Assembly (NCBI GenBank): GCA_022561055.1 | Contig: JADFRY010000001.1 | Coordinates: 121,262 to 185,261 of the forward strand | Direction of reading: 5' to 3' | Source: Nanobdellota archaeon | GTDB lineage: Archaea > Nanobdellota > Nanobdellia > Pacearchaeales > GW2011-AR1 | DNA: 64,000 bases | Shown: positions 10,598-60,927 of the stretch, in pieces | Layout: every line of letters starts with the position of its first letter | Numbering within the stretch: the first letter of the stretch is position 1 | Made by a program: the position numbers and the translations under genes | The notes under the pieces: generated by a model | The model's database searches: none | Seen by the model: only the letters and a program-made list of their open reading frames with translations | What the model was told of the DNA's origin: nothing

Positions 10598-10689
10598 GCT
10601 AAAAATAAGGAGAAAGTGTTTTTAAGCGTGTTGATTAATCCACCTGTCCTAAATTATGAGCCATTAAGAAATAAGAGTTGATATTTATG

Positions 10690-10715
10690 TCACATGTTAA
10701 ATATAACATATGTGA
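10690..10715. promoter_or_regulatory. Imperfect palindrome (candidate ArsR operator) just upstream of a TATA-like box
   Basis: TCACAT-GTTA-AATA-TAAC-AT-ATGTGA: the outer 6 bp and inner 4 bp arms are complementary, with a 2-nt offset. It sits ~15 nt upstream of tttataaata (10731-10740) and ~45 nt upstream of the arsR-like ATG. Confidence 0.35.
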
Positions 10716-10759
10716 TATTTTACCATAATATTTATAAATAGCATTATGTAATAAAATAT

Positions 10760-11071
10760 ATGATAAAGTCAAAATCTCTTCAAAATGCATATGACAGATT
10801 TCTTACAACTTTATCAAATAAAGTAAGATTAACAATAATTTATTCCTTAAAAGATAATCCAAAGAATGTAACTCGACTCACTAATGAACTGAAAATTCAT
10901 CAGACAACTGTTTCCCATTCATTAAGAAGACTATTAGATTGTGGATTTGTGTTTGTAGAGCAAAATGGTAAAGAAAGAATATACTCTGTAAATAAAAAAA
11001 CAATTAAGCCGTTGTTAAAATTAATGGAAGAGCATGTTAATAATTATTGTGCAAAGGGGGTGTGTAAATAA
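10760..11071 (+). CDS. ArsR/SmtB-family metalloregulatory transcriptional repressor
   Basis: RLTIIYSLKDNPKNVTRLTNELKIHQTTVSHSLRRLLDCGFVFVEQNGKERIYSVN matches the ArsR wHTH pattern. The C-terminus contains CAKGVC. Confidence 0.85.
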   Translation: MIKSKSLQNAYDRFLTTLSNKVRLTIIYSLKDNPKNVTRLTNELKIHQTTVSHSLRRLLDCGFVFVEQNGKERIYSVNKKTIKPLLKLMEEHVNNYCAKGVCK

Positions 11072-11072
11072 A

Positions 11073-11234
11073 ATGGTAAAACAAGAAACAAAAAACGACA
11101 AGACATATTTCATGTGTGAAGAATGTAACATGTATTACAAAACTAAGGATTTGGCTGAGAAGTGTGAAAGTCATTGCAGAGATAAACATGCATGTGACAC
11201 TGAAATAACAAAATATGCTGTTCAGCTTGATTGA
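11073..11234 (+). CDS. Small Cys-rich (zinc-ribbon-like) protein
   Basis: The most plausible start is the ATG at 11073, 1 nt after the arsR stop. The sequence is MVKQETKNDKTYFMCEECNMYYKTKDLAEKCESHCRDKHACDTEI, with CxxC...CxxxC...C spacing. Confidence 0.6.
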   Translation: MVKQETKNDKTYFMCEECNMYYKTKDLAEKCESHCRDKHACDTEITKYAVQLD

Positions 11235-12094
11235 AAATGAGCAATAATTATCTGAGATTAATTGGGATTATTATAATTTTGATAGCTATAATTGCAGCCG
11301 GCTATTTCACTTTTATATATTTTGTAAAAAATATAGTTCCAAGTTTCAGTAGTTATGGTTTGATTATCATTGCTATGATTGCCGGAGTTTCTATGTTTTT
11401 TAATCCTTGTTCATTTACATTATTACCAGCTTTCTTAACTTTTTTTGCTACAAAAAGCGAATTAAAGGGCGAGAATAAATTAGGTAAATTTTTATTATAT
11501 GGTCTTTTTGCTTCTTTAGGTATCATAACGTTTAGCATTATTCTTGGCAGTTTAATAGGACTATTAGGGGTAGGATTTGGTAAATCATTTGCTTTAACAG
11601 GAGATGCTCCCAATTTATCTGTCAGAATTTTTAGAGGTGTCATAGGAGGGTTATTAGCTATTTTTGGTTTAATGCATTTTAGAGGTGTGAGTTTTAAGAC
11701 AGGGGCCCTAAATAAGTTAAGCCAAGGGATCATGTCACCGGGTAATAAGGGTCCTTTAATGGGCATGTATTTATATGGCTTTGGATATAATGCACTAGGA
11801 ATTGGCTGTGGCGGACCTATAATGGCAGGTCTCTTAGTTTTTTCTTTAAGTTTAGGTGGTTTTAGCTCAGCATTGCTCGCCTTTATTATATTCTCCTTAA
11901 CAATGGTTGTATTAATGTTATTGATATCTATTTTAGTTGGTCTTTCTAAAGACACCTTAATTAATAAGATGAAAACTTCGTCTGGAAAAATTAAAAAGTT
12001 TACAGGAATAATAATGCTGCTAGTTGGTTTGTTTTTATTACTTTCAGCTATCTTTACAAAGATATTTGTAGGCATATTATTTCCAGGAGGATAA
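11231..12094 (+). CDS. DsbD/CcdA-family transmembrane thiol:disulfide electron-transfer protein (copy 1)
   Basis: Polytopic membrane protein with the family's two-Cys signature: FNPCSFTLLPAFL in an early TM helix and GIGCGGPIMAG in a later one. It overlaps the upstream gene by 4 nt. Confidence 0.75.
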   Translation: MKMSNNYLRLIGIIIILIAIIAAGYFTFIYFVKNIVPSFSSYGLIIIAMIAGVSMFFNPCSFTLLPAFLTFFATKSELKGENKLGKFLLYGLFASLGIITFSIILGSLIGLLGVGFGKSFALTGDAPNLSVRIFRGVIGGLLAIFGLMHFRGVSFKTGALNKLSQGIMSPGNKGPLMGMYLYGFGYNALGIGCGGPIMAGLLVFSLSLGGFSSALLAFIIFSLTMVVLMLLISILVGLSKDTLINKMKTSSGKIKKFTGIIMLLVGLFLLLSAIFTKIFVGILFPGG

Positions 12095-12110
12095 AAATAA
12101 GAAAGGAACA

Positions 12111-12308
12111 ATGAAAAAAATACTGAAAATACAAGGCATGCATTGTAGTGGATGTGCAACAGGCTTGGAGATTTTATTAAATACAAAAGGCATAAAAGCC
12201 AAAGTGGACTTTGATTCAAAAAAGGCAGAAGTTGAATTCAACCCAGATAAAATAAGCCTTGAAAAAATTAAAAAAGAAATAGAAAATGTTGGTTACAAAG
12301 TAAAATAA
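12111..12308 (+). CDS. Heavy-metal-associated (HMA) domain metallochaperone, CopZ-like
   Basis: LKIQGMHCSGCATGLE carries the MxCxxC motif, and the 65-aa size fits a ferredoxin-like HMA domain. Confidence 0.85.
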   Translation: MKKILKIQGMHCSGCATGLEILLNTKGIKAKVDFDSKKAEVEFNPDKISLEKIKKEIENVGYKVK

Positions 12309-12310
12309 AC

Positions 12311-13141
12311 ATGAGAATTAAAAAAGGCTATTTGGTATTAGGCTTATTATTATTGGGTATAATTATAGTAGCCATTATTGGACTTTATATTTGGAATAAT
12401 CAAATTTTATCAAACATTGGAAAAATAAGCCAGTTTTCATTCTTTTTAATTTTGGGATTTGCTTTTATCGCAGGCGTAATATCTTTTTTCTCACCTTGTG
12501 GTTTAGCCCTATTACCAGCTTTTCTTAGTTATAATATGGCAATGGTAGACAGCAAACAAAATCCACGTGAAACAAAGAAAAGAATTCTAAAAATAGGTAT
12601 TTTCTCAGCTTTAGGAATTGTTACATTTTATATTATTCTAGGAGTAATATTTTCATTATTCGGAGTAGTAATCGGCCAGTATATAAAATATTTTCAGTAT
12701 GCTATTGCAATACTTTTCGTAGTGTTTGGAATTATGCTTGTAAGAAATTTTGCTCTTTCAAATAAACTGTTTGATAAATTACGAGAGAAAGTTCATTCTA
12801 AGGCGGTAAGTAGTTCTGGTTATAAAGGATTTTATATTTTCGGATTTGCTTATGGTCTTGATATCATTGGATGTCTTTTTCCCCTAATCGCAGCTTTGGT
12901 GTTAATTCCTATAGCAACAGGAAATTTCGTGGTTGGAATTTCAGCATTCTTGTCTTTCTCTTTAGCATTAGCTATTACATTGAGCGTATTTGCTTATTTG
13001 ATAATTTATTCAAAAAAATCATTAGTTTCAGATATCTTAAAATCAACTAGAAAATTAAAAATGTGGATGGGAATAGGTTTAATAATTGGTGGAGTAGCCT
13101 TACTATTTTATTATACCTTTTGGGGGATGGTAATAGGATAA
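12311..13141 (+). CDS. DsbD/CcdA-family transmembrane thiol:disulfide electron-transfer protein (copy 2)
   Basis: FFSPCGLALLPAFLSY and GLDIIGCLFPLIAAL within a polytopic membrane protein. It starts 2 nt after the HMA gene stop. Confidence 0.75.
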   Translation: MRIKKGYLVLGLLLLGIIIVAIIGLYIWNNQILSNIGKISQFSFFLILGFAFIAGVISFFSPCGLALLPAFLSYNMAMVDSKQNPRETKKRILKIGIFSALGIVTFYIILGVIFSLFGVVIGQYIKYFQYAIAILFVVFGIMLVRNFALSNKLFDKLREKVHSKAVSSSGYKGFYIFGFAYGLDIIGCLFPLIAALVLIPIATGNFVVGISAFLSFSLALAITLSVFAYLIIYSKKSLVSDILKSTRKLKMWMGIGLIIGGVALLFYYTFWGMVIG

Positions 13142-13171
13142 AATGGATAAAAAGATGAAAGGAGGTATAAA

Positions 13172-13729
13172 ATGATAAACAAAGAAGACAAAGTTGAAGA
13201 AGCTAAAGAAGGAGAATATGTGCATATTAACATGAAAGTAATTGTTGTAGGATTAATAGCTGGAGTTATCGCATCTTTATGGACAATTATCCCATTTTTT
13301 GTTGGTGGTGTAAGTAATTTATTATATGCGACAGTTTCTATTGGGTTGCTTTTCTTAATCTTTTTTGCAGGATTTAAGAAAGGAGGAATAATCAAATCAG
13401 GAGGATTAGCCATAGGGGTTTTCCTTCTAATGTCTTATCTCCTAGTCCCATTTGTGAGCGGATTTTTATTGAATAACAATACTGATATCTCACAAATAAA
13501 TACTGAAGGATTGGAAACAGTTAATTTAGCATTACCCGGTCTATTTTGTGGAGGGTGTGCATATAGTTCGGAGAATGCATTGAAAGGCATGCCAGGAGTT
13601 GTAGATGCAAGAGTTGATTTTGATTCGAAAAGTGGAGTTGTTGTCTATGATCCAAACCTTATTACTCCAGAGACAATTGTTTCGAATGGAATTATTCAAG
13701 TTTACGGAGGAAGGATTGTAAATGGTTAA
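13172..13729 (+). CDS. Membrane protein with a C-terminal HMA-like domain
   Basis: About three TM helices, then LALPGLFCGGCAYSSENALKGMPGVVDARVDFDSKSGVVVYDP, which has an HMA topology with CGGC in place of MxCxxC. An SD-like aaaggaggt lies upstream. Confidence 0.65.
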   Translation: MINKEDKVEEAKEGEYVHINMKVIVVGLIAGVIASLWTIIPFFVGGVSNLLYATVSIGLLFLIFFAGFKKGGIIKSGGLAIGVFLLMSYLLVPFVSGFLLNNNTDISQINTEGLETVNLALPGLFCGGCAYSSENALKGMPGVVDARVDFDSKSGVVVYDPNLITPETIVSNGIIQVYGGRIVNG

Positions 13730-13776
13730 GGCATCCCCTTTTTTTGCTTTTCTTTATAAAATGCTAAACATACCAA

Positions 13777-14775
13777 ATGGCAGATAAATCAAGAATTTTG
13801 CTTGCAGTATTTGGTTTTATTTTATTGGTAATTATTATTGTAGGTCTGTTTTTTCTCGCGTTAAGTGCTGCTGGAACAACAAGTTTGCTTCTTTCCTATG
13901 CCGCTGGCTTATCAATGATTTTCTTGCCTTGCACGCTTCCTTTGGTGTTTATTATTGTACCTCTGACTATGGGTCATAAACCAATAAAAGGGTTGATGAT
14001 GGCACTTCTTTTTGGTCTTGGTATTTCAATCACTTTAGCGATCTATGGAATATTAACAGCCAGTATTGGCTCATTTTTAGGTGTCGATAAAACAACACGT
14101 ATTATGTTTAGTATTGCAGGACTTGCAGCCCTTACTTTTGGCATTTCAGAGCTAAAACTCATAAAATTTACTATGCCTGGTTTTTCTGGCGCAGTGCCTC
14201 AATGGATTCAGAAGAGGAAAGATTACTCTAAGATTTTTTTTATGGGCTTATTTTTAGGTAATGCTGGCGTAGGATGTCCTAATCCAGCTTTCTATGTTTT
14301 ACTTACTTATATTGCCTCTGTTGGCAGTTTTGTTACAGGTGGATGGCTTGCCTTTATTCATGGTGTGGGAAGAGCAACTCCGCTTATTTTTCTTGCAATT
14401 TTAGGAATTATTGGTATTAATTCAATGAAATGGGTAGCCACTAAGAGAACATCAATTGATAAAATAATGGGTTGGGGTTTAATTCTAGTCGGAGCATTTA
14501 TCTTTGCATTTGGCTTTTTTGGCATGGCATGGTGGGAAAGTGGCCCTATCCATCAAACATGGAATAGCGCTATAGAAAATATTGCGCCAAATCTAGCAGA
14601 GCTAGAAGGCCACGATTTATTAGTTCCAGCAGGTTTTGTTTCAGGCCCATTATGGTCGGGCTGGGTATTAGTGGCTACGATAATATTTTTTATTTTTATT
14701 TGGTATAGACTAAAAGGAAAACAAGTAACTAAAAAAGAAGAGGTAAACAATATAAACCGGGACTCACATATATAA
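13777..14775 (+). CDS. DsbD-family-like polytopic membrane protein (copy 3, larger and divergent)
   Basis: MIFLPCTLPLVFIIVP and NAGVGCPNPAFYVLL follow the same two-Cys-in-TM logic. It has extra C-terminal TM helices. Confidence 0.55.
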   Translation: MADKSRILLAVFGFILLVIIIVGLFFLALSAAGTTSLLLSYAAGLSMIFLPCTLPLVFIIVPLTMGHKPIKGLMMALLFGLGISITLAIYGILTASIGSFLGVDKTTRIMFSIAGLAALTFGISELKLIKFTMPGFSGAVPQWIQKRKDYSKIFFMGLFLGNAGVGCPNPAFYVLLTYIASVGSFVTGGWLAFIHGVGRATPLIFLAILGIIGINSMKWVATKRTSIDKIMGWGLILVGAFIFAFGFFGMAWWESGPIHQTWNSAIENIAPNLAELEGHDLLVPAGFVSGPLWSGWVLVATIIFFIFIWYRLKGKQVTKKEEVNNINRDSHI

Positions 14776-14782
14776 TTATAAA

Positions 14783-15031
14783 ATGATTAAAAAAGTTCAA
14801 ATTTTAAAAACGCCCGGCTGTACGTCTTGTGCAAAAGCAATGGTGCTTGTCAAGAAAATAAAAAAAGAAGAAAAACTCAGTTTTAAAATACAAGAATTAG
14901 ATATTTCAAAGCATCCAGACTTATTACAAAAATATCAAATAATGGTTTCTCCAGGCATTGTCATAGATGGCAAATTAGAGTTTGTAGGAATGCCTAACGA
15001 GAGGAAGCTTAGAGAGAAGTTAATTAAATGA
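14783..15031 (+). CDS. Small thioredoxin/glutaredoxin-fold protein
   Basis: KTPGCTSCAKA carries a CxxC motif, and YQIMVSPGIVIDGKLEFVGMP contains the cis-Pro region. The 82-aa size fits. Confidence 0.7.
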   Translation: MIKKVQILKTPGCTSCAKAMVLVKKIKKEEKLSFKIQELDISKHPDLLQKYQIMVSPGIVIDGKLEFVGMPNERKLREKLIK

Positions 15032-19894: not shown

Positions 19895-21469
19895 TTAAGT
19901 ACTTTCACACTTACTTTCTACACATATTTTATCTTCATCGCAGTCTGTGTCAACTGTGCATTCTGGCGCATTTTCACATTCACCTTCTACACAAACTTTA
20001 TCTTCTTCACAATTAGCATCGACTGTACATTCAGCTTTATCTTCTTCGTCTATTTCATCATTCTCATCTTTAAATTCTATCAAATCCTCTTTCTCTTCTC
20101 TAGTTTCAATCTCAAATTCTACAAATGGCCTTATTTCTTCGACTGGAACTCCTAATCTGAGTGCTATTTCATTTAAGATTTCTTTTTCATTTGTTGTTTT
20201 TAATTTAAATTCCATTTTTATTCTATCCCATTTAATTTCTATTTCTGCTTCATCATCTTCTATTTCGACTTCAATCTCTCTTTCTTTCTCCTCCTCCTCA
20301 ACTTCTTGTTTAAATTCTATAACATCTAATATTTCTTGTTCTGTAAGTTGGATTCTCTTTACAATTGCTTTTATTATAGACTCTCTGTCGGTGCCATCAA
20401 TGAATTCTAGTTTTATTTTTACTTTTGCAAATGAAACACCGTGTTTTTCTTTTATTTTAGCTTTAATTCTTAATTTTTCCAATCTTTCAAGTTCTTTCTT
20501 ATCTTCATCTTGTTCAGTTATGCTATTATCCGAGCCATTATCACAATGCCCTAGAGAGTCGCCATGTGCTAAATGAGTAGAAACCGCAGGCGCTCCTATG
20601 ATTATCGTATGTGCCTCTTCTGGATTTTCTGGAGGAATATGGCAAATCTCAACCTCTTCCTTTTCATCATCGCCTCTTTCTATTTTCAAGAGGCGATTTG
20701 CTTCTTCTTTAGTCAGAGCAAATCTTTCAATTATTTCTTTGATTACTTCATCTTTACTAGTTGCTCTTATAGTGAATTTAAGCTCAACCTTTACTCTTGA
20801 GAAATCGTCAAATATTTTTGCTTTAACTTTTCTTTCTTCCCTTAATCTTCCTAAACCATCTTCTATTTCTATTCTTGATCTTCCTGTTCGCTGCTCTATT
20901 CTAACCTTTGTTCTTTCTTCTTTATTTTCTATGTCTATTCTTACTCTTTCTATATTTTCATCAAGAGAATTTATGAATGCAAGTAATCTGGCTATTTGCT
21001 CTTCTGTCAGTGTTATGCCTTCTATTTTTATTCTTATTCTTGATCTGATTTCATCTAATTCTGCTTCTTGATCGTCTAAGGCATTTTCAAGGTCAACTAC
21101 TTCTTCTAAATTTTTTTCATTATCTTCTTCTAATTCTTGTATTCCTGCTCTTACTCTGGTAAGTTTTTCTTTATGAGCTAATTCAGCTTTTTCTGCGTCA
21201 GGAATTTTTTCTTCCTCAATCATCGCTTTGACTTCAAGAAGTCTTTCAAGAGCATGTTTGAGACCTTTTTCTGCTTTAGCTGATTTATCAAATGTTAGTG
21301 CTAGATTAATGTTTTCTAAAGCTCTGTCAATGCCCCATAAAGGATTATCAGGAGTCACGCCTGCTTGTATCTCTTCCTCGGCTGAAACGGCTTGATCCTG
21401 CGCAATTACAAATGATAAGGTTACAAATATAAGAAGACTAGATAATAATATTAATTTGTTCATATTCAT
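19895..21469 (-). CDS. Secreted, highly acidic repeat protein with a Cys-rich C-terminal module
   Basis: Signal-peptide-like N-terminus MNMNKLILLSSLLIFVTLSFVIAQD. Three internal ~55-60-aa repeats follow the pattern (K)VK.(E)L.F....T...EI...I..R..LT.EE. The C-terminus has tandem CTVD.(N/D)C.EDK.CVE..CE units. Confidence 0.7.
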   Translation of the reverse strand: MNMNKLILLSSLLIFVTLSFVIAQDQAVSAEEEIQAGVTPDNPLWGIDRALENINLALTFDKSAKAEKGLKHALERLLEVKAMIEEEKIPDAEKAELAHKEKLTRVRAGIQELEEDNEKNLEEVVDLENALDDQEAELDEIRSRIRIKIEGITLTEEQIARLLAFINSLDENIERVRIDIENKEERTKVRIEQRTGRSRIEIEDGLGRLREERKVKAKIFDDFSRVKVELKFTIRATSKDEVIKEIIERFALTKEEANRLLKIERGDDEKEEVEICHIPPENPEEAHTIIIGAPAVSTHLAHGDSLGHCDNGSDNSITEQDEDKKELERLEKLRIKAKIKEKHGVSFAKVKIKLEFIDGTDRESIIKAIVKRIQLTEQEILDVIEFKQEVEEEEKEREIEVEIEDDEAEIEIKWDRIKMEFKLKTTNEKEILNEIALRLGVPVEEIRPFVEFEIETREEKEDLIEFKDENDEIDEEDKAECTVDANCEEDKVCVEGECENAPECTVDTDCDEDKICVESKCEST

Positions 21470-39736: not shown

Positions 39737-42700
39737 ATGCGAAAAAAGTGGTGGATGATTATTATTGTTTTGATTGCTTTGTTAGTTGTCGTTGCTAGTT
39801 ATAATTATATTACTACTGGTGTTCTTTTTGCTCCTTTTTTAGATAGTGATGGTGCTGATGGTTTTATTGGTGAGGAAAGTTTTGGGGTTGTTGAGAGTGA
39901 TGGAGCTGAAGATACGATTATAGAAGACGAGGAATTGAAAGTAGGAAATATATTAGAGAGGCTTTTTGCCGGCGAGGAGCGGGTCGCTCCTAGGACATTT
40001 AAGGTCTTTGCAACAGATTCTAATTTTACAGGAGATGTTTTGAATAGGGCTGATGAAATTTGTAATGATGCGGCTTCTAATGCTGGATTGAGGGGGAATT
40101 ATGTGGCTTTATTGAGCACGACGAGGGAACATGCCGTGGATAAAATACAAGATGGGAAATACTTGAGAGTCGATGGAGTTAAGATTGCAGATAACAAGAG
40201 AGATTTGTTTGATGGGACTATTGATAACCCTTTAAATGTTAATGAGTTTGGTAATGTATTGCCTACGCTTACTTGCGATAGTAATGGATTTGAGTGTAAT
40301 TTAATTTATACCGGTAGTAAGGTTGATGGCACTTTAGATCCTGGTTTTAATTGTAATGATTGGAATTCTATCTCTGCACTTTCTACAGTTGGACATTATC
40401 CAAGTGTCGATCATAATTGGATAAATACAAATAATGTTTCTTGTTCTGAAGTCTTAGGAATTTATTGTTTTGAATCTTATGTTACTAGGCCAGAGTGTGA
40501 TGAGGTTTACACTGTACGGGATTTAGATAATGTAAGGAATGATTTAGATGCTTGTTATATCCAGATGGCAGATATTGATATGACAGGAGTGGTTTGGGAG
40601 CCTATTGGACAGATAGACCTTAATATGTTTCCGAGTCCGAATGACAGACCATTCACAGGAAGATACGATGGTAATGGATTTAAGATAACTAATTTTGAAA
40701 TACCTGAAACAAATGCTTCTGCTTTATTTGCTTATTCTACTGGAATTATAGAGAATGTTACTATTGATGGTTTTAATATAGATACTAGGAATTCTTTAGG
40801 GATAATAGGTTCTTTAATTGCTGTTAATGAAGGGGTTGTGAGAAATTCTTTGGCTAAAAATGGATTTATGAGAGTCGCCGGTTCATCCATCCTTTCAGAA
40901 GGTATTGGTGGTTTAATTGGTGCAAATCTTGAAGGGAATATAAGGAATTCTGGAGTTATTAGAGTAACTATTTTTGGAAATAGTTTTGTTGGAGGGCTTA
41001 TGGGGGGAACGTTGTATGGTATAATTGAAAGTACCTATGCAGAAGATGTAAATGTTCAATCTCAGGGCAGGGATAGGTTTGTAGGAGGTCTTATAGGAGT
41101 AGTGGCAGGAACTGGGTCTATAAAAGACACAAATATAACTGACTCGTATGCAACTGGCAATGTTGGAAATGGCAATGAAAATGATGTTGGAGGGTTAATT
41201 GGAGGTTTCGAAGGGATTGAATCAGAATTATATAATTCTCATTTTAGAGGTGTTGTTAATGGAAGAGGAAAGGTGGGAGGTCTTATAGGGTCAGGAGAGT
41301 TTGTAACTGTTGGAAATTCTTATTCTCTTGGAACTGTTAACGGAGATTATGATGTTGGCGGACTAATTGGAGTTGCAAGGCATGTAGATATTGTAGATAG
41401 CTTTTCAACAAGTACAGTTCAGGGTAAACAATTTGTAGGAGGTTTGGTTGGAGGCATGGTTAGAAGCTCTATTAAGGATTCTCACAGTAGTGGTAATGTA
41501 AGTGGAGAAATAAGTGTTGGTGGACTAATAGGTAGTCTTTGGCAGGGAGACAATAGTATATTTAAATCATATGCAACAGGAAATGTGTTTGGGAGAAATG
41601 ATGTTGGTGGTTTCGCCGGGTACATTAGTGATTCTGCTTTAGTAAATGAATCTTTTGCTCTAGGCAATGTTGTTGGTAATATAAGTACTATTATAAGTAC
41701 TATTGGAGGATTCGCAGGGATTAATGGCGGAAATGTAACTAATTCATTTTCTAAAGGGTCAGTGTTAGGAACTAATTTAGTGGGAGGTTTCGTTGGAAGT
41801 GATTTATTTGGAGTAATGTTACAAGGAGCTCCTGAACATTCTTATTCTACTGGATTTGTCAGTGGAAATTACTCTGTAGGAGGCTTTTCAGGGGGAGGAA
41901 CGTTGGTTTCTAATACAAATTACTGGGACATTGAAACCTCAAATCAAACAACAAGTGCTGGAGGAGTTGGCAAAACAACAGCAGAAATGAAAAGGCAGAA
42001 TACATTTGAAAATTGGGACTTTAATAGAGTTTGGGATATTGCAGAAGATAGAACTTATCCGTTCTTGAGGTGGATGTCTGAGGAGGAATTGGTTGTACAC
42101 TATAAGTTTGATGAAATTACAAACGGCAAGACACCAGATAGTTCGATATTCAGATATGATGCGGATGTTTCAGGAGCTACATTATGGCAGTGGGGAAATA
42201 TAGACAAGGCATTGAATTTCAGTGGTTGGAGAGATTTTGTCTCTGTGGAAGATACTCCATTTTTGTATTCAGATAAGGAAATAACTATTTCGGCTTGGGT
42301 TAATACGAAGAAAAAATGGAAGCCTCTCCAAACTATTGCTTGGAAAGGAAATCCGGAGGGAAGTGCTGTTAATAGTAGTAATAGAGAGTTTGCTTTATTC
42401 TTGGCAGGGTCTGAAGACCCTAGTGCTGGAGGACAACATAATAGCAAGGTGCAAATAGTATTTACTCCTGAAAATAGAATTGGAGTAGGACAGATTCCAT
42501 GCACGACAAATACTTTTCCTATCAGAGCAGAAAATTGGTGGTATCATGTTGCCGGCGTTATCGATGTTAGAAATCAAGTAATGAAGATTTATGTTGATGG
42601 AGTGGAGGTTAAGACATGTAATATTCTTGGCATATCAAATATTAGAAATACAAATGGTTCGTTGGTTGTAGGGAATAAGATGCCATTGCCTGCCGGTAGC

Positions 42701-42790
42701 AGCGCAGGATTTACAGGAATGATTGATGATTTTAGACTTTATAGCAGGGTTTTGAGTGATGTGGAAATATTTGATTTGGCTAATGTGTGA
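39737..42790 (+). CDS. Large membrane-anchored surface protein 1: Cys-containing lectin-like domain, GLUG repeats and a LamG-like domain
   Basis: N-terminal TM anchor WWMIIIVLIALLVVVA. A ~190-aa domain follows (FKVFATDSNFTGDVLNRADEICN...NCNDWNS...LGIYCFE, tentatively DUF1554/endostatin-like). It has 12 or more GLUG-type units (VGGLIG, VGGLMG, VGGFAG). The C-terminus is a concanavalin-A/LamG-like domain (VHYKFDE...ALNFSG...ITISAWVN...WYHVAGV...IYVDGV...IDDFRLYSRVLS). Confidence 0.85.
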   Translation: MRKKWWMIIIVLIALLVVVASYNYITTGVLFAPFLDSDGADGFIGEESFGVVESDGAEDTIIEDEELKVGNILERLFAGEERVAPRTFKVFATDSNFTGDVLNRADEICNDAASNAGLRGNYVALLSTTREHAVDKIQDGKYLRVDGVKIADNKRDLFDGTIDNPLNVNEFGNVLPTLTCDSNGFECNLIYTGSKVDGTLDPGFNCNDWNSISALSTVGHYPSVDHNWINTNNVSCSEVLGIYCFESYVTRPECDEVYTVRDLDNVRNDLDACYIQMADIDMTGVVWEPIGQIDLNMFPSPNDRPFTGRYDGNGFKITNFEIPETNASALFAYSTGIIENVTIDGFNIDTRNSLGIIGSLIAVNEGVVRNSLAKNGFMRVAGSSILSEGIGGLIGANLEGNIRNSGVIRVTIFGNSFVGGLMGGTLYGIIESTYAEDVNVQSQGRDRFVGGLIGVVAGTGSIKDTNITDSYATGNVGNGNENDVGGLIGGFEGIESELYNSHFRGVVNGRGKVGGLIGSGEFVTVGNSYSLGTVNGDYDVGGLIGVARHVDIVDSFSTSTVQGKQFVGGLVGGMVRSSIKDSHSSGNVSGEISVGGLIGSLWQGDNSIFKSYATGNVFGRNDVGGFAGYISDSALVNESFALGNVVGNISTIISTIGGFAGINGGNVTNSFSKGSVLGTNLVGGFVGSDLFGVMLQGAPEHSYSTGFVSGNYSVGGFSGGGTLVSNTNYWDIETSNQTTSAGGVGKTTAEMKRQNTFENWDFNRVWDIAEDRTYPFLRWMSEEELVVHYKFDEITNGKTPDSSIFRYDADVSGATLWQWGNIDKALNFSGWRDFVSVEDTPFLYSDKEITISAWVNTKKKWKPLQTIAWKGNPEGSAVNSSNREFALFLAGSEDPSAGGQHNSKVQIVFTPENRIGVGQIPCTTNTFPIRAENWWYHVAGVIDVRNQVMKIYVDGVEVKTCNILGISNIRNTNGSLVVGNKMPLPAGSSAGFTGMIDDFRLYSRVLSDVEIFDLANV
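39983..40483 (+). repeat. 501-bp near-identical block shared with 52878..53378
   Basis: Aligned by eye: about 14 substitutions and no indels, and the last ~155 nt are identical. The block lies inside the lectin-like domain of both surface-protein genes. Confidence 0.85.
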
Positions 42791-52658: not shown

Positions 52659-55517
52659 ATGCGAAAAGAGTGGTGGATGATTATTTTAGTTTTAGTTGCT
52701 TTGTTAGTTGTCGTTGCAAGTTATAATTATATTACAACAGGTGTTCTCTTTGCTCCTAAGTTGAGTAGTGGTGGTGCTGATAGTTTTTCTGGTGAGGTTG
52801 AGAGTTTGGAAGGTGTTAGTGAGGAGGAGTTAAAGGAGGAAAGTATATTTACGAGGTATTTTGGAAATGAAGATAGAGTCGCTCCTAGGACATTTAAGGT
52901 CTTTGCAACAGATTCTAATTTTACAGGAGATGTTTTGAATAGGGCTGATGAAATTTGTAATGGTGCAGCCTCTAATGCTGGATTGAGGGGGAATTATGTG
53001 GCTTTATTGAGCACGACTAGGGAACATGCCGCGGATAAAATACAAGATGGAAAATATGTGAGAGTCGATGGAGTTAAGGTTGCAGATAACAAGAGAGATT
53101 TGTTTGATGGAACCATTGATAATCCTTTAAATGTTAATGAGTTTGGTAATGTATTGCCTACGCTTACTTGCGATAGTAATGGATTCGAGTGTAATTTAAT
53201 TTATACCGGTAGTAAGGTTGACGGCACTTTAGATCCTGGTTTTAATTGTAATGATTGGAATTCTATCTCTGCACTTTCTACAGTTGGACATTATCCAAGT
53301 GTCGATCATAATTGGATAAATACAAATAATGTTTCTTGTTCTGAAGTCTTAGGAATTTATTGTTTTGAATCTTATGTTCCTAGACCAAGTTGTAATAGGG
53401 TTTACACTGCCCAGGATTTAGATAACGTGAGGAATGATTTAGATGCTTGTTATATCCAGATGGCTGATATTGATTTGGGTAGTTGGGGTAACTGGGAACC
53501 TATTGGATACTTGGACATTAATACGTTTCCAGGCCCTAACGACAGGCCATTCACAGGGAGATATGATGGTAATGGATTTAAAATAACTAACTTTGAAATA
53601 CCTGAAGAAAATCTTTCTGCGTTATTTGCTTATTCCACAGGAGTTTTGGAGAATGTTACAATTGATGGTTTTAATATAGACAGCAGGGCGGCGCCACTTA
53701 TAGCTGTCGGTTCTTTGGTAGCAGTTAATGGAGGAGTCGTAAGAAATTCTTTGGCTAAAAATGGATTTATGAGAATCGGTTTATCCTATTTTTCAGAAGC
53801 TATTGGTGGTTTGATTGGTGCAAATATTGATGGAGATATAATGAATTCTGGAGTTAAAAATGTAACTATTTTTGGAAGTTTTACCGCTGGAGGGCTTATG
53901 GGTTTAACGTTGTATGGTATAATTGAAGGCACATATGCAGAAGATGTAAAGGTTCAAGGTCAGGGAGGATTTGTAGGAGGTCTAATTGGACGTATGCAAC
54001 ACACGAATATAACTGATTCATATGCTACGGGAAATGTTAGTGGTGGTATGAGTGTTGGAGGTCTTATAGGAAGTTTTAGAGGCTCTATGATATTTGCAAG
54101 TTCTGTAACTATTAAAAATTCTTATTCTTTTGGAATAGTTAATGGGAGTTATAATGTAGGGGGTTTAGTTGGAATTACGGTCGGAAAGGTAAATATTACA
54201 AATAGCTTTTCATCTAGTAAAGTTTCCGGGAGAAGTTCTGTAGGAGGTTTTATTGGCAGGACCAGGGTCGGGGCTAGAGGAAATTTTATTAGTAATTCTT
54301 ATGCTACCGGAGATGTGTTGGGGAGCAATAATGTTGGTGGATTTTTAGGATATAATCGAGGAACAATTAGTAATTCCTATTCAACAGGTCATGTGCTAGG
54401 AGACGGTAGGCTACCAGAAAACAGTAATGTTGGTGGGCTTTTAGGATACAATGATGGTGGAACCGTTAATAATTCCTATTCAACAGGCGATGTGGTAGGA
54501 AGGGAAAATGTGGGAGGACTTTTAGGACAAAATAATGAGAACGGAATAATTAGTAATTCTTATTCAACAGGTAGTGTGTCAGGGTTTAGTGCTGGCGGTG
54601 GTGGATTGGTAGGAATTAACCAGATGGGAGGACTTATCAGTAATTCTTACTGGGACATTGAAACATCTGGGCAAACCACAAGTGCCGGCGGAGTTGGAAA
54701 GACAACAGCGCAAATGAAAAGGCAAAACACATTTACTAATTGGGACTTTGTTAGGGTTTGGGATATTGCAGAAGATATAACTTATCCATTCTTGAGATGG
54801 CAACTCGAGGAGGGATTGATTGTACACTATAAGTTTGATGAACTTGCGAACGGCAAGACTCCGGACAGTTCTGCATATAGATATGATGCGGATGTTTTTG
54901 CAGCGGGGTTGGTTCCTGGAAAGATAGATGGAGCTCTTAATTTTAGCGGATGGAGAGGCCGTGTTCTCGTGGAAGATACTCCATTTTTGTATTCGGATGA
55001 AGAGATGACTATTTCAGCCTGGGTTAATACGAGGAAAAAATGGAAACCATCTCAGACTATTGTTTGGAAAGGTAATCCTGATGGGAGTCCTGGCGCTGTT
55101 AGCAGTGATAACAGGGAGTTTGCTTTATTCTTGTTGGGAGCTAGGGACAATAGCACTGGTGGATTTAATAGTAAAGTGCAGTTAGCTTTTACCCCAGAGA
55201 ATAGGATTGGAATTGGACAATATGCATGCACGACAATCACATTTCCTATTAGAGCAGAAAATTGGTGGTATCATGTTGCCGGCGTTATCGATGTTAGAAA
55301 CCGAGTAATGAAGATTTATGTCGATGGAGTAAAAGTTAAGACATGTAATATTTCTAGCGTATCAAATATTAGAAATACAAATGGTTCGTTGGTTGTAGGG
55401 AATAAGATGCCGTTGCCTGCGGGTAGCAGCGCAGGATTTACAGGGAAGATAGATGATGTTAGAATTTATAGTAAGGTTTTAAGTGATGCGGAAATCTTAG
55501 AGTTAGCTCAAGGATAG
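52659..55517 (+). CDS. Large membrane-anchored surface protein 2 (paralog of 39737..42790)
   Basis: It has the same architecture as gene 1: TM anchor, lectin-like Cys domain, GLUG repeats, YWDIETSGQTTSAGGVGKTTAQMKRQNTF.NWDF motif and LamG-like C-terminus. It is 952 aa against 1017 aa, and the central repeats are not colinear. Confidence 0.85.
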   Translation: MRKEWWMIILVLVALLVVVASYNYITTGVLFAPKLSSGGADSFSGEVESLEGVSEEELKEESIFTRYFGNEDRVAPRTFKVFATDSNFTGDVLNRADEICNGAASNAGLRGNYVALLSTTREHAADKIQDGKYVRVDGVKVADNKRDLFDGTIDNPLNVNEFGNVLPTLTCDSNGFECNLIYTGSKVDGTLDPGFNCNDWNSISALSTVGHYPSVDHNWINTNNVSCSEVLGIYCFESYVPRPSCNRVYTAQDLDNVRNDLDACYIQMADIDLGSWGNWEPIGYLDINTFPGPNDRPFTGRYDGNGFKITNFEIPEENLSALFAYSTGVLENVTIDGFNIDSRAAPLIAVGSLVAVNGGVVRNSLAKNGFMRIGLSYFSEAIGGLIGANIDGDIMNSGVKNVTIFGSFTAGGLMGLTLYGIIEGTYAEDVKVQGQGGFVGGLIGRMQHTNITDSYATGNVSGGMSVGGLIGSFRGSMIFASSVTIKNSYSFGIVNGSYNVGGLVGITVGKVNITNSFSSSKVSGRSSVGGFIGRTRVGARGNFISNSYATGDVLGSNNVGGFLGYNRGTISNSYSTGHVLGDGRLPENSNVGGLLGYNDGGTVNNSYSTGDVVGRENVGGLLGQNNENGIISNSYSTGSVSGFSAGGGGLVGINQMGGLISNSYWDIETSGQTTSAGGVGKTTAQMKRQNTFTNWDFVRVWDIAEDITYPFLRWQLEEGLIVHYKFDELANGKTPDSSAYRYDADVFAAGLVPGKIDGALNFSGWRGRVLVEDTPFLYSDEEMTISAWVNTRKKWKPSQTIVWKGNPDGSPGAVSSDNREFALFLLGARDNSTGGFNSKVQLAFTPENRIGIGQYACTTITFPIRAENWWYHVAGVIDVRNRVMKIYVDGVKVKTCNISSVSNIRNTNGSLVVGNKMPLPAGSSAGFTGKIDDVRIYSKVLSDAEILELAQG
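52878..53378 (+). repeat. 501-bp near-identical block shared with 39983..40483
   Basis: See the partner repeat at 39983..40483. The offset between copies is 12895 nt, in direct orientation. Confidence 0.85.
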
Positions 55518-58960: not shown

Positions 58961-59668
58961 ATGGCAGTAGAAATTACTTTACCGACGTTGGTGACAGTTT
59001 TAGTGACAGCAGCAGTTGATTCTATAAATCCTTGTGCAATAGGAGTTCTTATTCTTTTGATTTCTGTACTCGTAGTTACAAAAAAAAGAGATAAAATGCT
59101 TAAAATTGGATTCCTCTATATCGGGGCAGTATACTTAACTTATTTTATATTTGGTCTTGGTTTAATTGCATTTCTTACCTCAGTCCCTATTGTCTTAGCA
59201 CAATATATCTCAATAGCTGTTGGCCTTTTGGTCATTTTTGGTGGTATTATCGAGATAAAAGATTATTTCTGGTATGGTTTAGGATTTTCATTAATGATTC
59301 CTCACAAATATGCCAAAAAAATAAAAGAAAAAATGAAAAAAATGACAGTAGGAACCATTATATTTTTGGGAGTATTTGTTGCTGCTGTAGAGCTTCCATG
59401 CACAGGCGGACCTTATCTTGCAATAACTCTATTATTATCACAAAACTTTAATATCACGGCATTCTTTCTTCTTGTAATTTATAATATTATATTTGTCATG
59501 CCTCTTTTGATAATATTATTGCTTGTTGTTTTTGGAATAAAGATTCAAAACATTCAAAAATGGAAACAAGCTAATAAAGCATATATGAGATTAATAACAG
59601 GACTCGTGCTTGTTGGATTAGGATGGTTACTTATATTAATCGCAAACGGCACAATAAACCTTAATTAA
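58961..59668 (+). CDS. DsbD/CcdA-family transmembrane protein (fourth copy in the window)
   Basis: AVDSINPCAIGVLILL and VELPCTGGPYLAITLL give the two-Cys-in-TM signature. The protein is polytopic. Confidence 0.7.
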   Translation: MAVEITLPTLVTVLVTAAVDSINPCAIGVLILLISVLVVTKKRDKMLKIGFLYIGAVYLTYFIFGLGLIAFLTSVPIVLAQYISIAVGLLVIFGGIIEIKDYFWYGLGFSLMIPHKYAKKIKEKMKKMTVGTIIFLGVFVAAVELPCTGGPYLAITLLLSQNFNITAFFLLVIYNIIFVMPLLIILLLVVFGIKIQNIQKWKQANKAYMRLITGLVLVGLGWLLILIANGTINLN

Positions 59669-59961: not shown

Positions 59962-60927
59962 ATGATTTATGAAATTTTTATCGGTCTTATTAGTGTTTTA
60001 GGATTACTTATTGGAGCAGAGCTGGTTATTCATAATGCGAGAATTATTGCGCACAAACTTAGAATTTCCGATTTTTTTATTGGTTTAACTATATTTTCTA
60101 TTGGAACAAGTTTGCCAGAGATTGCCACTCATATAATTGCGAGTATTGACATTTTGAGAGGGGTTGATTTTCAAACAATGTCGGGGCTTGCTGTAGGAAC
60201 AAATGTCGGTTCTAATATAATTCAAATAACTCTGATTATTGGCATCGTGGCTTTTTTTGGAGTTTTAAAAGCAAAAAGGAAATTCTTGAGAGTAGACTAT
60301 GTTATGATGCTGGGCTCTATACTAATTTTATTTTTATTTTCACTGAATGGAATAATCTCAAGATTAGAAGGAGCTATTTTATTTTTCCTTTATGTGGCAT
60401 ATCTTATTTATCTTATAATAGATGAGAAAATTCCGAAGAAATTAATTGCCAGCCATTTAAAAGAAAAAGATAAGTTTCATTTATATATTTCTTTAGTCAT
60501 AATAATTGCTGGTTTAGTTATTTTGTTATTGAGTGCTGATAAAATTGCCGAGTTGACTTTATTTTTCTCGGCTAAATATTTAATATCCGGTTCTCTTCTT
60601 GGGACTTTGATTGTTGGTGTAAGCACTGCGCTTCCTGAGTTTACTACTGCAATCTTTGCTCTTAGAAAAAAAAGTTCTGGAATGTCTCTTGGAACATTAG
60701 TCGGGAGTAATATTACAAATCCTTTGATGGCATTAGGAATAGGCGCTATGATATCGACATATTCTATAGATAAGTCTATTTTATGGTATGACATTCCATT
60801 TTGGTTTTTAACATCCTTGATTTTGTTAGCTATAATGTGGCGTACGAAAACGTTAACAAAGAAAGGAGGAATATTCTTAATCCTTGCATATATTTTATTT
60901 GTGATTGTCAGGATTTATTTGTTCTAG
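59962..60927 (+). CDS. Ca2+/cation antiporter (CaCA family, YrbG/NCX-like)
   Basis: Two alpha-repeats are present, GLTIFSIGTSLPEIATHI and GTLIVGVSTALPEFTTAIFA. There are ~10 TM helices. Confidence 0.85.
   Translation: MIYEIFIGLISVLGLLIGAELVIHNARIIAHKLRISDFFIGLTIFSIGTSLPEIATHIIASIDILRGVDFQTMSGLAVGTNVGSNIIQITLIIGIVAFFGVLKAKRKFLRVDYVMMLGSILILFLFSLNGIISRLEGAILFFLYVAYLIYLIIDEKIPKKLIASHLKEKDKFHLYISLVIIIAGLVILLLSADKIAELTLFFSAKYLISGSLLGTLIVGVSTALPEFTTAIFALRKKSSGMSLGTLVGSNITNPLMALGIGAMISTYSIDKSILWYDIPFWFLTSLILLAIMWRTKTLTKKGGIFLILAYILFVIVRIYLF

Follow-up and report, generated by a model that had tools for sequence, protein, structure and literature searches.

A cluster of eight genes in a 64,000-nucleotide (nt) stretch of the genome of a Nanobdellota archaeon (contig JADFRY010000001.1, positions 121,262 to 185,261 of the forward strand; the whole stretch is called the window below) most likely specifies a soft-metal defence system whose layout has not been described before. 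The cluster encodes three membrane proteins of the CcdA/DsbD family, here named Ccd1, Ccd2 and Ccd3, next to small proteins or domains that carry Cys pairs, and relatives of each pair lie in mercury- or copper-resistance loci of other genomes. We estimate at about four in five the probability that the cluster is a soft-metal-linked, trans-membrane Cys-pair relay under a metal- or thiol-sensing ArsR regulator. The narrower proposal, an ArsR-repressed operon that handles thiophilic metals of the Hg(II)/Cu(I) class through a specific division of labour among three modules, is held tentatively, at slightly less than even odds.

The window sequence and open reading frame (ORF) calls place the eight genes, g1 to g8, tightly packed on the plus strand:

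10760-11071, plus strand: g1, ArsR/SmtB-family regulator, 103 amino acids (aa); HTH_5 3.3e-12, NF033788 60.4 bits
11073-11234, plus strand: g2, five-Cys protein, 53 aa, C-x2-C-x12-C-x3-C-x5-C, DUF7128-like, of zinc-ribbon/rubredoxin-knuckle type
11237-12094, plus strand: g3 (Ccd1), CcdA-family membrane protein, 285 aa (287 from a TTG at 11231), predicted leading transmembrane helix (TM0) and six-helix transmembrane core
12111-12308, plus strand: g4, CopZ-like HMA protein, 65 aa; HMA 3.3e-13, GMHCSGC
12311-13141, plus strand: g5 (Ccd2), CcdA-family membrane protein, 276 aa, predicted TM0 and six-helix transmembrane core; DsbD_TM 4.6e-11
13172-13729, plus strand: g6, protein with three transmembrane helices and a C-terminal HMA domain, 185 aa; HMA 2e-10, LPGLFCGGC
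13777-14775, plus strand: g7 (Ccd3), larger CcdA-family protein, 332 aa; DsbD_TM 1.6e-11, DsbD_2 1.8e-6
14783-15031, plus strand: g8, thioredoxin-fold protein, 82 aa; Thioredoxin_3 1.2e-13, PGCTSC

A preliminary description of this DNA had listed the same eight genes, all on one strand and separated by 1 to 47 nt. All the ORFs are indeed present, and the gaps measure 1, 16, 2, 30, 47 and 7 nt. The 4-nt overlap that it drew between g2 and g3 exists only if g3 starts at the TTG at 11231; the database protein (P0001) starts at the ATG at 11237, leaving a gap of 2 nt. Its family assignments are borne out by Pfam and NCBIfam matches, by BLASTP between g3 and g5 and by the match of a g3 profile to the CcdA structure 5VKV. 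The 53-aa Cys protein is there as well, with five Cys rather than the four first counted.

A change of partner in three CcdA subfamilies

Topology was predicted from hydropathy and the positive-inside rule. Both g3 and g5 are predicted to have a cytoplasmic N-terminus, followed by TM0, the six-helix core and an external C-terminus. In Thermoplasmata and their relatives, an anchor helix, a TlpA/Redoxin-like domain and a CcdA core occur in a single polypeptide (L056 5954-7276; L058 7359-8666; L062 6417-8726; L108 354-2153; here and below, L and P numbers denote related loci and proteins). This design, a canonical CcdA fused to its external acceptor, accounts for 19 of the 111 family representatives. 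Since these fusions hold a thioredoxin-like domain between TM0 and TM1, that stretch is probably external.

The neighbours of the genes tell the subfamilies of the cluster apart from ordinary CcdA. Counted by simple ORF calling over loci that are not phylogenetically independent, an HMA gene adjoins the CcdA-family gene at 21 of 47 subfamily loci and at 1 of 97 canonical CcdA loci (Fisher 2.5e-11), whereas a Redoxin/TlpA-like gene does so at 1 of 47 and 32 of 97, respectively (Fisher 1e-5). The control loci carry an ordinary short CcdA; they came from a metagenome-contig scan with the Ccd2 alignment, which relied on one generic pattern and yielded mostly canonical CcdA-Redoxin pairs. The switch of partner from Redoxin to HMA in these subfamilies is clear.

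The modules recur in Nanoarchaeota, Patescibacteria, Aenigmarchaeota, Chloroflexota, Thermoplasmata and Thaumarchaeota. Their neighbours there include bona fide MerA, MerC-like proteins, P1B ATPases and cupredoxins, and the regulators are ArsR, CsoR or HxlR. The metal link proposed in the preliminary description is upheld by these neighbours, CsoR and YHS proteins among them, and its one-to-one pairing of each transporter with an adjoining Cys-pair module by the recovery of three separately conserved modules in comparative genomics. Conservation of gene neighbourhood, which it had named as a check, is found across phyla for the modules and not for the complete eight-gene order, which even the closest relatives (L009 and L010, metagenome-assembled genomes labelled Nanoarchaeota, 79-80% identity) do not keep. 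The window cluster strings together three modules. Selection acts on each of them in many lineages, and all three occur in Hg/Cu loci.

The label "cytochrome c biogenesis protein CcdA", a family name used by some sources, is the sole point in favour of a role in cytochrome c maturation. Neither the cluster nor the related loci have CcsBA/ResBC, Ccm or cytochrome genes, and the conserved partners are HMA proteins and small thioredoxins under metal regulators. This assignment was rejected because the heme-attachment genes are absent, and we regard its likelihood as negligible.

Ccd1 and its cytoplasmic HMA partner

While g3 has no direct match in Pfam or NCBIfam, it is 31% identical to g5 (E 1e-30), and the profile of its family finds Thermus CcdA 5VKV (E 9.6e-5), where FFNPC and GIGCGGP line up with both active-site Cys. 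DsbD_TM is matched by 48 of the 111 family representatives. The two core Cys, Cys60 (FFNPCSF) in the first and Cys193 (GIGCGGP) in the fourth core helix, are invariant in the Ccd1 alignment (A1) and nearly invariant in the 111 representatives. The family is small: an exhaustive profile search gave only 156 representatives of 50% clusters at E<=1e-30 among 1.84 billion. Homologues occur in Nanoarchaeota, Aenigmarchaeota, Woesearchaeota, Micrarchaeota, Thaumarchaeota, Thermoplasmata, Patescibacteria, Chloroflexota and others. The helices of an AlphaFold2 (AF2) model of g3 (predicted local distance difference test, pLDDT, 73) match hydropathy; a Foldseek search of the PDB with this model gave no significant match (best E 0.38).

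The adjacent g4 scores 50.2 bits against HMA PF00403 (cutoff 24.8) and falls below the CopZ equivalog cutoffs (52.5 vs 91 and 38 vs 95; NF033795/NF033794), hence the designation CopZ-like only. Having neither signal peptide nor transmembrane segment, it is predicted to be cytoplasmic. A small leaderless HMA gene directly adjoins Ccd1 on the same strand in 18 of 38 species representatives; the products (74-80 aa) are probably cytoplasmic too, because they have no signal peptide. Other neighbours in the 38 representatives are MerA-like genes within 8 kb (12), ArsR (9), P1B ATPase (8), DUF7128 (6) and a divergent HxlR (5), and 33 of the 38 have at least one of HMA, MerA-like, P1B, ArsR, HxlR and DUF7128 near Ccd1. 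Both the CVNVGC redox motif and a C-terminal CC are present in nine of the MerA-like genes, and a patescibacterial one reaches 515 bits on the TIGR02053 equivalog (cutoff 454). Canonical MerT, MerF, MerC or MerE was detectable in only 2 of the Ccd1-type loci.

Gene fusions connect the same parts. An HMA domain precedes TM0 and Ccd1 in P0314 and P0306, and in P0290 Ccd1 continues into an additional helix, a basic linker and HMA; in each of these three designs the HMA domain falls in the cytoplasm. In another fusion (P0287) a zinc ribbon is N-terminal to Ccd1. A MerC-family (PF03203) domain is either N-terminal to Ccd1 (L046 7491-8759, P0281, P0319) or encoded beside it (L019 1284-1721, 31.1 bits; L021 3808-4287, 27.7 bits; cutoff 27.6). 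This linkage was seen in Aenigmarchaeota, Woesearchaeota and Thaumarchaeota.

These observations bear on the strongest alternative, a pure electron relay in which all three Ccd proteins would be CcdA-type exporters of reductant, fed by g8 and a housekeeping thioredoxin. Extracytoplasmic thiols (the tethered HMA, Cys pairs of transporters, surface proteins) would be kept reduced under metal stress, and g4 and g2 would be co-regulated metal buffers or regulatory domains, much as if Scs/DsbD logic operated in a DPANN archaeon. The alignment of both Cys with those of 5VKV and the Redoxin fusions among the family representatives fit such a relay, as do the Redoxin genes beside Ccd1 in MerA operons (L002/L015 and L020) and the copper resistance conferred by Scs, a Cu-induced DsbD-like reductase. 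Fusion to MerC, too, could serve to keep MerC thiols reduced. What the relay leaves unexplained is that the commonest neighbour of Ccd1 is a cytoplasmic HMA protein that is no reductase, and that fusion on the cytoplasmic side occurs in three independent architectures; moreover, many HMA-Ccd1 pairs have no thioredoxin or external acceptor nearby. Because HMA is not a reductase, the pairing and the fusions are hard to explain by electrons alone. On these grounds we prefer a mixed model, the tentative three-module scheme introduced above, and consider the pure electron relay somewhat unlikely.

Several further proteins were seen next to Ccd1 genes. In the patescibacterial order ArsR-MerA-x171-Redoxin-Ccd1 (L002/L015), x171 stands for small membrane proteins located directly upstream of Ccd1 in MerA operons (L002 5919-6434; L011 7379-7951; L020 7481-7909; L024 458-961; L002 8088-8360). 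They have a CxxC within a transmembrane helix (e.g. AACASCLAALFGF) and usually a second, cytoplasmic CxxC. Neither x171 nor x145, a small membrane protein likewise encoded upstream of Ccd1 at other loci, belongs to a Pfam or NCBIfam family or has a counterpart in the window. From its sequence features, x171 is a candidate for a new Hg(II) transporter family with MerT/MerC-like logic. In some Chloroflexota, a MerA-like pyridine-nucleotide disulfide oxidoreductase without the C-terminal Cys pair accompanies HMA-Ccd1, just upstream (L035 988-2238), just downstream (L036 2626-3876) or about 1.2 kb downstream (L026 4708-5925). It is not MerA and may be RclA-like or some other reductase. Finally, in L008 (6165-7858) IscS/NifU adjoin a Ccd1-type gene that follows DsrE2 and TusA. 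On Arthrobacter plasmids, two CcdA genes are accompanied by DsbA, DsrE and a CopY-type regulator (PMC6305408). The two cases suggest that some CcdA-like proteins are linked to sulfur-relay proteins.

Ccd2 and a tethered, probably external HMA domain

The second CcdA-family protein, g5, scores 42.9 bits against DsbD_TM (PF02683, cutoff 27.1), and its Cys63 (SPCGL) and Cys188 (IIGCLFP) are both invariant in the Ccd2 alignment (A2). Conservation of the paired Cys, a check suggested in the preliminary description, was thus confirmed for Ccd1 and Ccd2 alike. Directly downstream, g6 scores 41.3 bits against HMA PF00403 (cutoff 24.8). Its only Cys are those of the HMA motif, the transmembrane domain having none. 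By the positive-inside rule, the N-terminus and the KKGGIIK loop are inside and the HMA domain is predicted to be outside. An AF2 model has helices at residues 21-43, 48-66 and 77-99 and a confident HMA fold (pLDDT of the region 81-89). The family with three transmembrane helices and HMA is tiny (18 clusters among 5.8 billion proteins), and its membrane helices are probably more than an anchor, since they contain invariant residues.

A tethered-HMA gene lies directly downstream of Ccd2 at other loci as well. The gene orders, with TMHMA for the tethered HMA protein and Trx3 for the small thioredoxin, are ArsR-Trx3-Ccd2-TMHMA-Ccd1 (L001/L013), Ccd2-TMHMA-Trx3 (L057), ArsR-Ccd2-TMHMA (L090) and Ccd3-Ccd2-TMHMA-Trx3 (L091). 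Patescibacterial equivalents of g6 consist of one N-terminal anchor followed by HMA, which supports an external location of the domain. The identification of g6 as a MerTP fusion was ruled out: there is no transmembrane Cys, and the match (34.8 vs a cutoff of 180) covers only HMA and the last helix.

Ccd3 and a small thioredoxin

The largest of the three proteins, g7, scores 44.4 bits against PF02683 (cutoff 27.1). It is predicted to have TM0, a six-helix transmembrane core, an acidic external loop of 41 aa and one more transmembrane helix at the C-terminus; its Cys pair is Cys51 (LPCTLP) and Cys167 (GVGCPNP). In BLASTP comparisons it shows remote similarity to g3 (E 1e-5) and none that is detectable to g5, which rules out a recent triplication of the Ccd genes. 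To judge from these comparisons, Ccd1, Ccd2 and Ccd3 are ancient subfamilies. The threefold paralogy of the preliminary description is correct in that all three proteins are of the CcdA family, with the amendment that the paralogues are old.

Ccd3 has more than 2000 homologues, the closest of which, in Patescibacteria (P0131, P0132, P0147), are up to 73-78% identical. In L167 (6001-6975) Ccd3 lies behind an ArsR of the g1 subfamily; other orders are CsoR-Ccd3-x-FTR1-Trx3 (L168) and ArsR/YHS-cupredoxin-CopA-small Cys protein-Ccd3-Trx3 (L169). The neighbourhood of L167 is bacterial (LepA, RF-1, FtsX, DivIC) and that of the window archaeal (tRNA-intron endonuclease). Together with the high identity, this points to recent cross-domain transfer between the candidate phyla radiation (CPR) and DPANN.

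The product of g8 scores 51.3 against Pfam Thioredoxin_3 (cutoff 24.8), and the same score leaves it short of the MJ0307 family, TIGR00411 (cutoff 92.75). With no hydrophobic segment, it is predicted to be cytoplasmic. Homologues adjoin Ccd2/TMHMA or Ccd3 in L001, L018, L057, L091, L168 and L169, a recurrence that also speaks for the pure electron relay. The presumed electron donor to the Ccd proteins is g8.

The five-Cys protein

At 25.1 bits, g2 is just under the DUF7128 cutoff (25.7), while its L009 homologue reaches 30.9. All five Cys are kept in 10 homologues encoded beside Ccd1 or Ccd3 genes (L009, L010, L018 (two), L019, L020 (two), L038 and L046 (two)). There is no hydrophobic segment in g2, which is predicted to be cytoplasmic. 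Tiny Cys-rich proteins also adjoin the patescibacterial Ccd3-Trx3 pair: one of 65 aa with CCKCGC (L169 5773-5970) and one of 56 aa resembling an FCS/TRASH-like zinc finger (L168 8309-8479). They seem to fill the role that the DUF7128-like g2 has in the window.

The regulator and the DNA upstream

Membership of g1 in the ArsR/SmtB family follows from its scores against NF033788 (60.4 bits, cutoff 55) and HTH_5 (46.5, cutoff 22). It has Cys61 (LLDCGFV) and a C-terminal cluster of H93, C97 and C102. Regulators of this type form one subfamily, defined by a Cys that is conserved within L..CGFV and by a [YF]C-x2-4-C pair at the C-terminus, and the Cys are kept in L001, L004, L009, L010, L018, L020, L022, L045, L090, L092 and L167, beside Ccd, MerA or P1B genes. 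The subfamily heads MerA operons, P1B operons and Ccd-only operons alike. Similarity of g1 to the nearest ArsRs of solved structure (NmtR, CzrA, BigR, SqrR) amounts to 23-29 bits only. Aligned with CzrA and NmtR, it lacks both an alpha3 motif of the ELCVCD type and the alpha5 D/H pair, and it scores 34 against the CmtR model (cutoff 150). From the sequence, the thiolate-rich site fits soft metals and could also be a redox switch.

Two features precede the gene:

10686-10723, no strand assigned: candidate ArsR operator, imperfect overlapping inverted repeats TATGTCACATGTTA / TAACATATGTGATA, core AAATATAACATATGTG
10731-10740, plus strand: TATA-like box TTTATAAATA, about 20-29 nt before the g1 ATG, read from the sequence and conserved in L001

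The palindrome that had been placed at 10690-10715 is present as an inverted repeat, though an imperfect one: its arms are 14 nt long with 79-86% complementarity, of a kind that AT-rich DNA readily gives. The core AAATATAACATATGTG is also found upstream of the orthologous ArsR of L001, at equal distance from the TATA-like box, and CATATG-centred inverted repeats precede most ArsR homologues of the g1 subfamily. The distance between the TATA-like box and the g1 ATG suggests a leaderless or short-leader archaeal transcript. In L010 (6295-7265), a second ArsR (C-terminal HYCRC) is followed by a fusion protein with an N-terminal YHS/TRASH-like domain and a MauE/DoxX membrane domain; the pair sits directly upstream of an ArsR-Ccd1-HMA-DUF7128-Ccd3 operon.

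The features of g1 bring in another explanation, a general system against thiol/disulfide stress of the envelope. ArsR and HxlR would be Cys-based sensors of redox state or electrophiles, the Ccd proteins and thioredoxin would repair surface Cys, and the HMA domains would be incidental. The weak matches of g1 to persulfide/redox sensors of the BigR/SqrR type, along with its lack of the classical alpha3N and alpha5 ligands, are consistent with this, as is the presence of HxlR genes flanking HMA-Ccd1 (L007, L029, L038, L042, L046) and of VKOR, DsbA and DoxX genes near related clusters. Three large proteins encoded in the window (19895-21469, minus strand; 39737-42790; 52659-55517) each begin with a hydrophobic anchor or signal, contain 10 Cys and could be clients. 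Yet the HMA, YHS, MerA, MerC-like, P1B ATPase, cupredoxin and CsoR neighbours are metal-specific, and the Cys content of the anchored window proteins, 1-2%, is not unusual. We consider a general stress system improbable. The earlier suggestion that the cluster might supply redox upkeep for many secreted Cys proteins receives no particular support: only three or four anchored proteins of the window have about 1-2% Cys.

A working model

In the scheme that we tentatively favour, each CcdA-family protein, whose two Cys lie in core helices one and four, would be wired to a Cys-pair partner of its own. Ccd3 and the cytoplasmic thioredoxin g8 would act as a canonical CcdA system and pass reducing equivalents outward. 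Ccd2 would serve the surface HMA domain of g6, which occupies the genomic place that an external Redoxin/TlpA-like protein has beside ordinary CcdA, and would keep its CxxC reduced for the capture of metal ions outside the cell. Ccd1 would exchange with the cytoplasmic HMA protein g4, most likely by direct transfer of a metal ion between the Cys pair in the membrane and that of the HMA protein, analogous to the steps from MerT to NmerA and from CopZ to CopA; g2 would be an additional cytoplasmic ligand. The regulator g1 would sense the metal, or the thiol stress that results from it, through its conserved Cys triad and derepress the operon. Ccd3 with its thioredoxin and Ccd2 with its external acceptor resemble canonical electron relays, with HMA standing in for the usual thioredoxin-fold acceptor. 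The analysis shows membership of families, conservation of Cys, a predicted topology and recurrent pairings and fusions; the nature of the cargo (electrons or metal), the direction of transfer and the inducer are what we infer from these arrangements.

Several points weigh against a role in metal handling. To our knowledge, every characterised CcdA/DsbD protein carries electrons, not metals, which equally favours the pure electron relay, and so do the external Redoxin genes adjoining Ccd1 mentioned above. The fused or adjacent cytoplasmic HMA domain might be regulatory, as in P1B ATPases, and the Cys pattern of the ArsR and the HxlR regulators of related loci may belong to thiol-redox switches rather than metal sites. 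As the cluster has no MerA, MerC/T or P1B ATPase, the fate of an imported metal, or the energy source for its export, is left unexplained. Besides, the AF2 models reach only moderate confidence (pLDDT 73 and 65) and gave no Foldseek match, and the neighbourhood counts derive from crude ORF calling on phylogenetically non-independent contigs of metagenome-assembled genomes.

A bolder version would make Ccd1- and Ccd2-type proteins CcdA-derived translocators of thiophilic metals and not electron carriers at all. A brigade would run from the outside HMA domain of g6 through the membrane Cys pair to the inside HMA protein g4, and redox cycling in the thioredoxin/Ccd3 branch might gate or power it. 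If true, these would be Hg(II)/Cu(I) transporters of a new class and the missing uptake route of MerT-less, ArsR-regulated mer operons in archaea, CPR and Chloroflexota. We regard this version as possible but doubtful.

Surroundings of the cluster

The cluster is flanked by an archaeal tRNA-intron endonuclease gene on one side and a thioesterase/LeuRS pair on the other. No MerA homologue was found in the window, and phmmer gave no match there to MerT, MerF, MerC or MerE, the queries having been validated against NCBIfam. Neither the cluster nor the rest of the window encodes a P1B ATPase. These results agree with the preliminary statement that the locus is not a standard cop or mer operon. The sole P-type ATPase of the window (902 aa, 61009-63717) has Cation_ATPase_N/C domains and is of the P2 type, which rules it out as CopA. 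It is grouped with an SfLAP-family membrane protein (58961-59668) and a Na/Ca exchanger (59962-60927) at the far end of the window, unrelated to the cluster.

Significance

CcdA/DsbD proteins have been known only as electron conduits with thioredoxin-fold partners. Here, three subfamilies have swapped that partner for HMA, as judged from adjacency and gene fusion, and are embedded in mercury and copper loci of at least six phyla, mostly of uncultivated organisms. If they move or service soft metals, they are candidates for the transporter missing from ArsR-type mer operons (Boyd & Barkay, PMC3466566). In that case they would also show how DPANN and CPR cells, ultra-small and devoid of a periplasm and of many thiol buffers, shield their surface thiols from Hg and Cu, and would be a natural case of an electron-transporter scaffold turned to the hand-off of metals.

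Comparison with known systems

The literature search found no description of such a CcdA-HMA or mer-linked system. The layout was likewise unrecognised in the preliminary description; this stands for the layout as a whole, but partial precedents exist in Scs, the actinomycete mer operons and the tso models of NCBIfam.

The cluster shares with the CcdA/DsbD pathway (cytoplasmic thioredoxin to CcdA to a ResA/TlpA/CcmG-type protein) the membrane family, the Cys in the first and fourth core helices and the co-encoded small cytoplasmic thioredoxin, and in both an external partner gene may adjoin the CcdA gene (32 of 97 controls). It differs in that the partner is HMA and not a thioredoxin fold, tethered on the outside in the case of Ccd2 and cytoplasmic in that of Ccd1. 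TM0, three divergent paralogues in one operon, a metal-type ArsR and the lack of cytochrome c machinery are further differences.

The best functional analogue for a thiol relay combined with a metallochaperone is Scs of Salmonella, Caulobacter and Proteus. This Cu-induced reductase of the DsbD family protects the envelope under copper stress, and ScsB and ScsC bind Cu(I) and can hand it to the metallochaperone CueP (PMC10907172). ScsB has eight transmembrane helices with periplasmic alpha and gamma domains, whereas the Ccd proteins of the window are bare CcdA-type cores of seven or eight helices without soluble Cys domains. The Scs partners are the thioredoxin-fold proteins ScsC and ScsD; those in the cluster are HMA proteins, and the cluster encodes no external thioredoxin-fold protein. 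Scs is controlled by CpxRA and found in Proteobacteria, the cluster by ArsR, with relatives in DPANN and CPR. A speculative Cu-binding role has also been proposed for copper-responsive DsbD-family genes of Nitrososphaera (PMC7785015).

With the mer brigade (MerP to MerT/MerC/MerF to NmerA-MerA) the cluster has in common the layout of external HMA, membrane Cys pair and cytoplasmic HMA, and the predicted topology of g6 is that of a MerTP fusion. Moreover, Ccd1 relatives lie in bona fide MerA operons, mostly ones without MerT/C/F/E, and some are fused to MerC-like domains. Unlike mer, the window has no MerA, its membrane proteins are of the CcdA family, the transmembrane domain of g6 has no Cys and the regulator is ArsR rather than MerR. 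An ArsR-type mer repressor is known, and ArsR-type mer operons have no known transporters (Boyd & Barkay 2012, PMC3466566). Actinomycete mer operons list "mercury transporter" genes with CcdA and TrxA domains (PMC12195606, Table 4). Going by annotation, they resemble the cluster in combining an ArsR-type repressor, a CcdA-family protein and a thioredoxin-like protein, and the order ArsR-MerA-x171-Redoxin-Ccd1 resembles the actinomycete type. They do have MerA and MerB, and HMA partners, three paralogues or a tethered HMA are not reported for them. Searched by tblastn against 72,556 plasmids, g3 gave no match and g7 two weak ones only, one over an annotated dsbD and one over no feature; pMAB23 has MerT/MerH and no CcdA gene.

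The tso parts list (the ArsR-type regulator TsoR, the rhodanese/DsbD fusion TsoB, a MerT/CopZ fusion selenoprotein and the small thioredoxin-like TsoX) matches the cluster by model names and by weak matches of g1, g5, g7, g6 and g8. It raises the question of a persulfide or selenide relay akin to the TusA/DsrE systems, with sulfane sulfur or selenium, in place of metals or electrons, as the cargo of the Cys pairs, for which the DsrE2-TusA-Ccd1 order of L008 and the Arthrobacter plasmid module (PMC6305408) could also be cited. Every tso score is far under its cutoff, however (TsoR 38.5 vs 115, TsoB 37.7 vs 805, TsoX 19.6 vs 52, MerT_CopZ_Se 24.6 vs 375); selenocysteine, rhodanese, TusA and DsrE are all absent from the window, and a sulfur-relay context occurs in just 1 of about 47 subfamily loci. 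The literature search found no publication on tso. A sulfur or selenium relay thus appears very improbable. HMA partners, a tethered external HMA domain and three Ccd paralogues set the cluster apart from every one of the systems compared.

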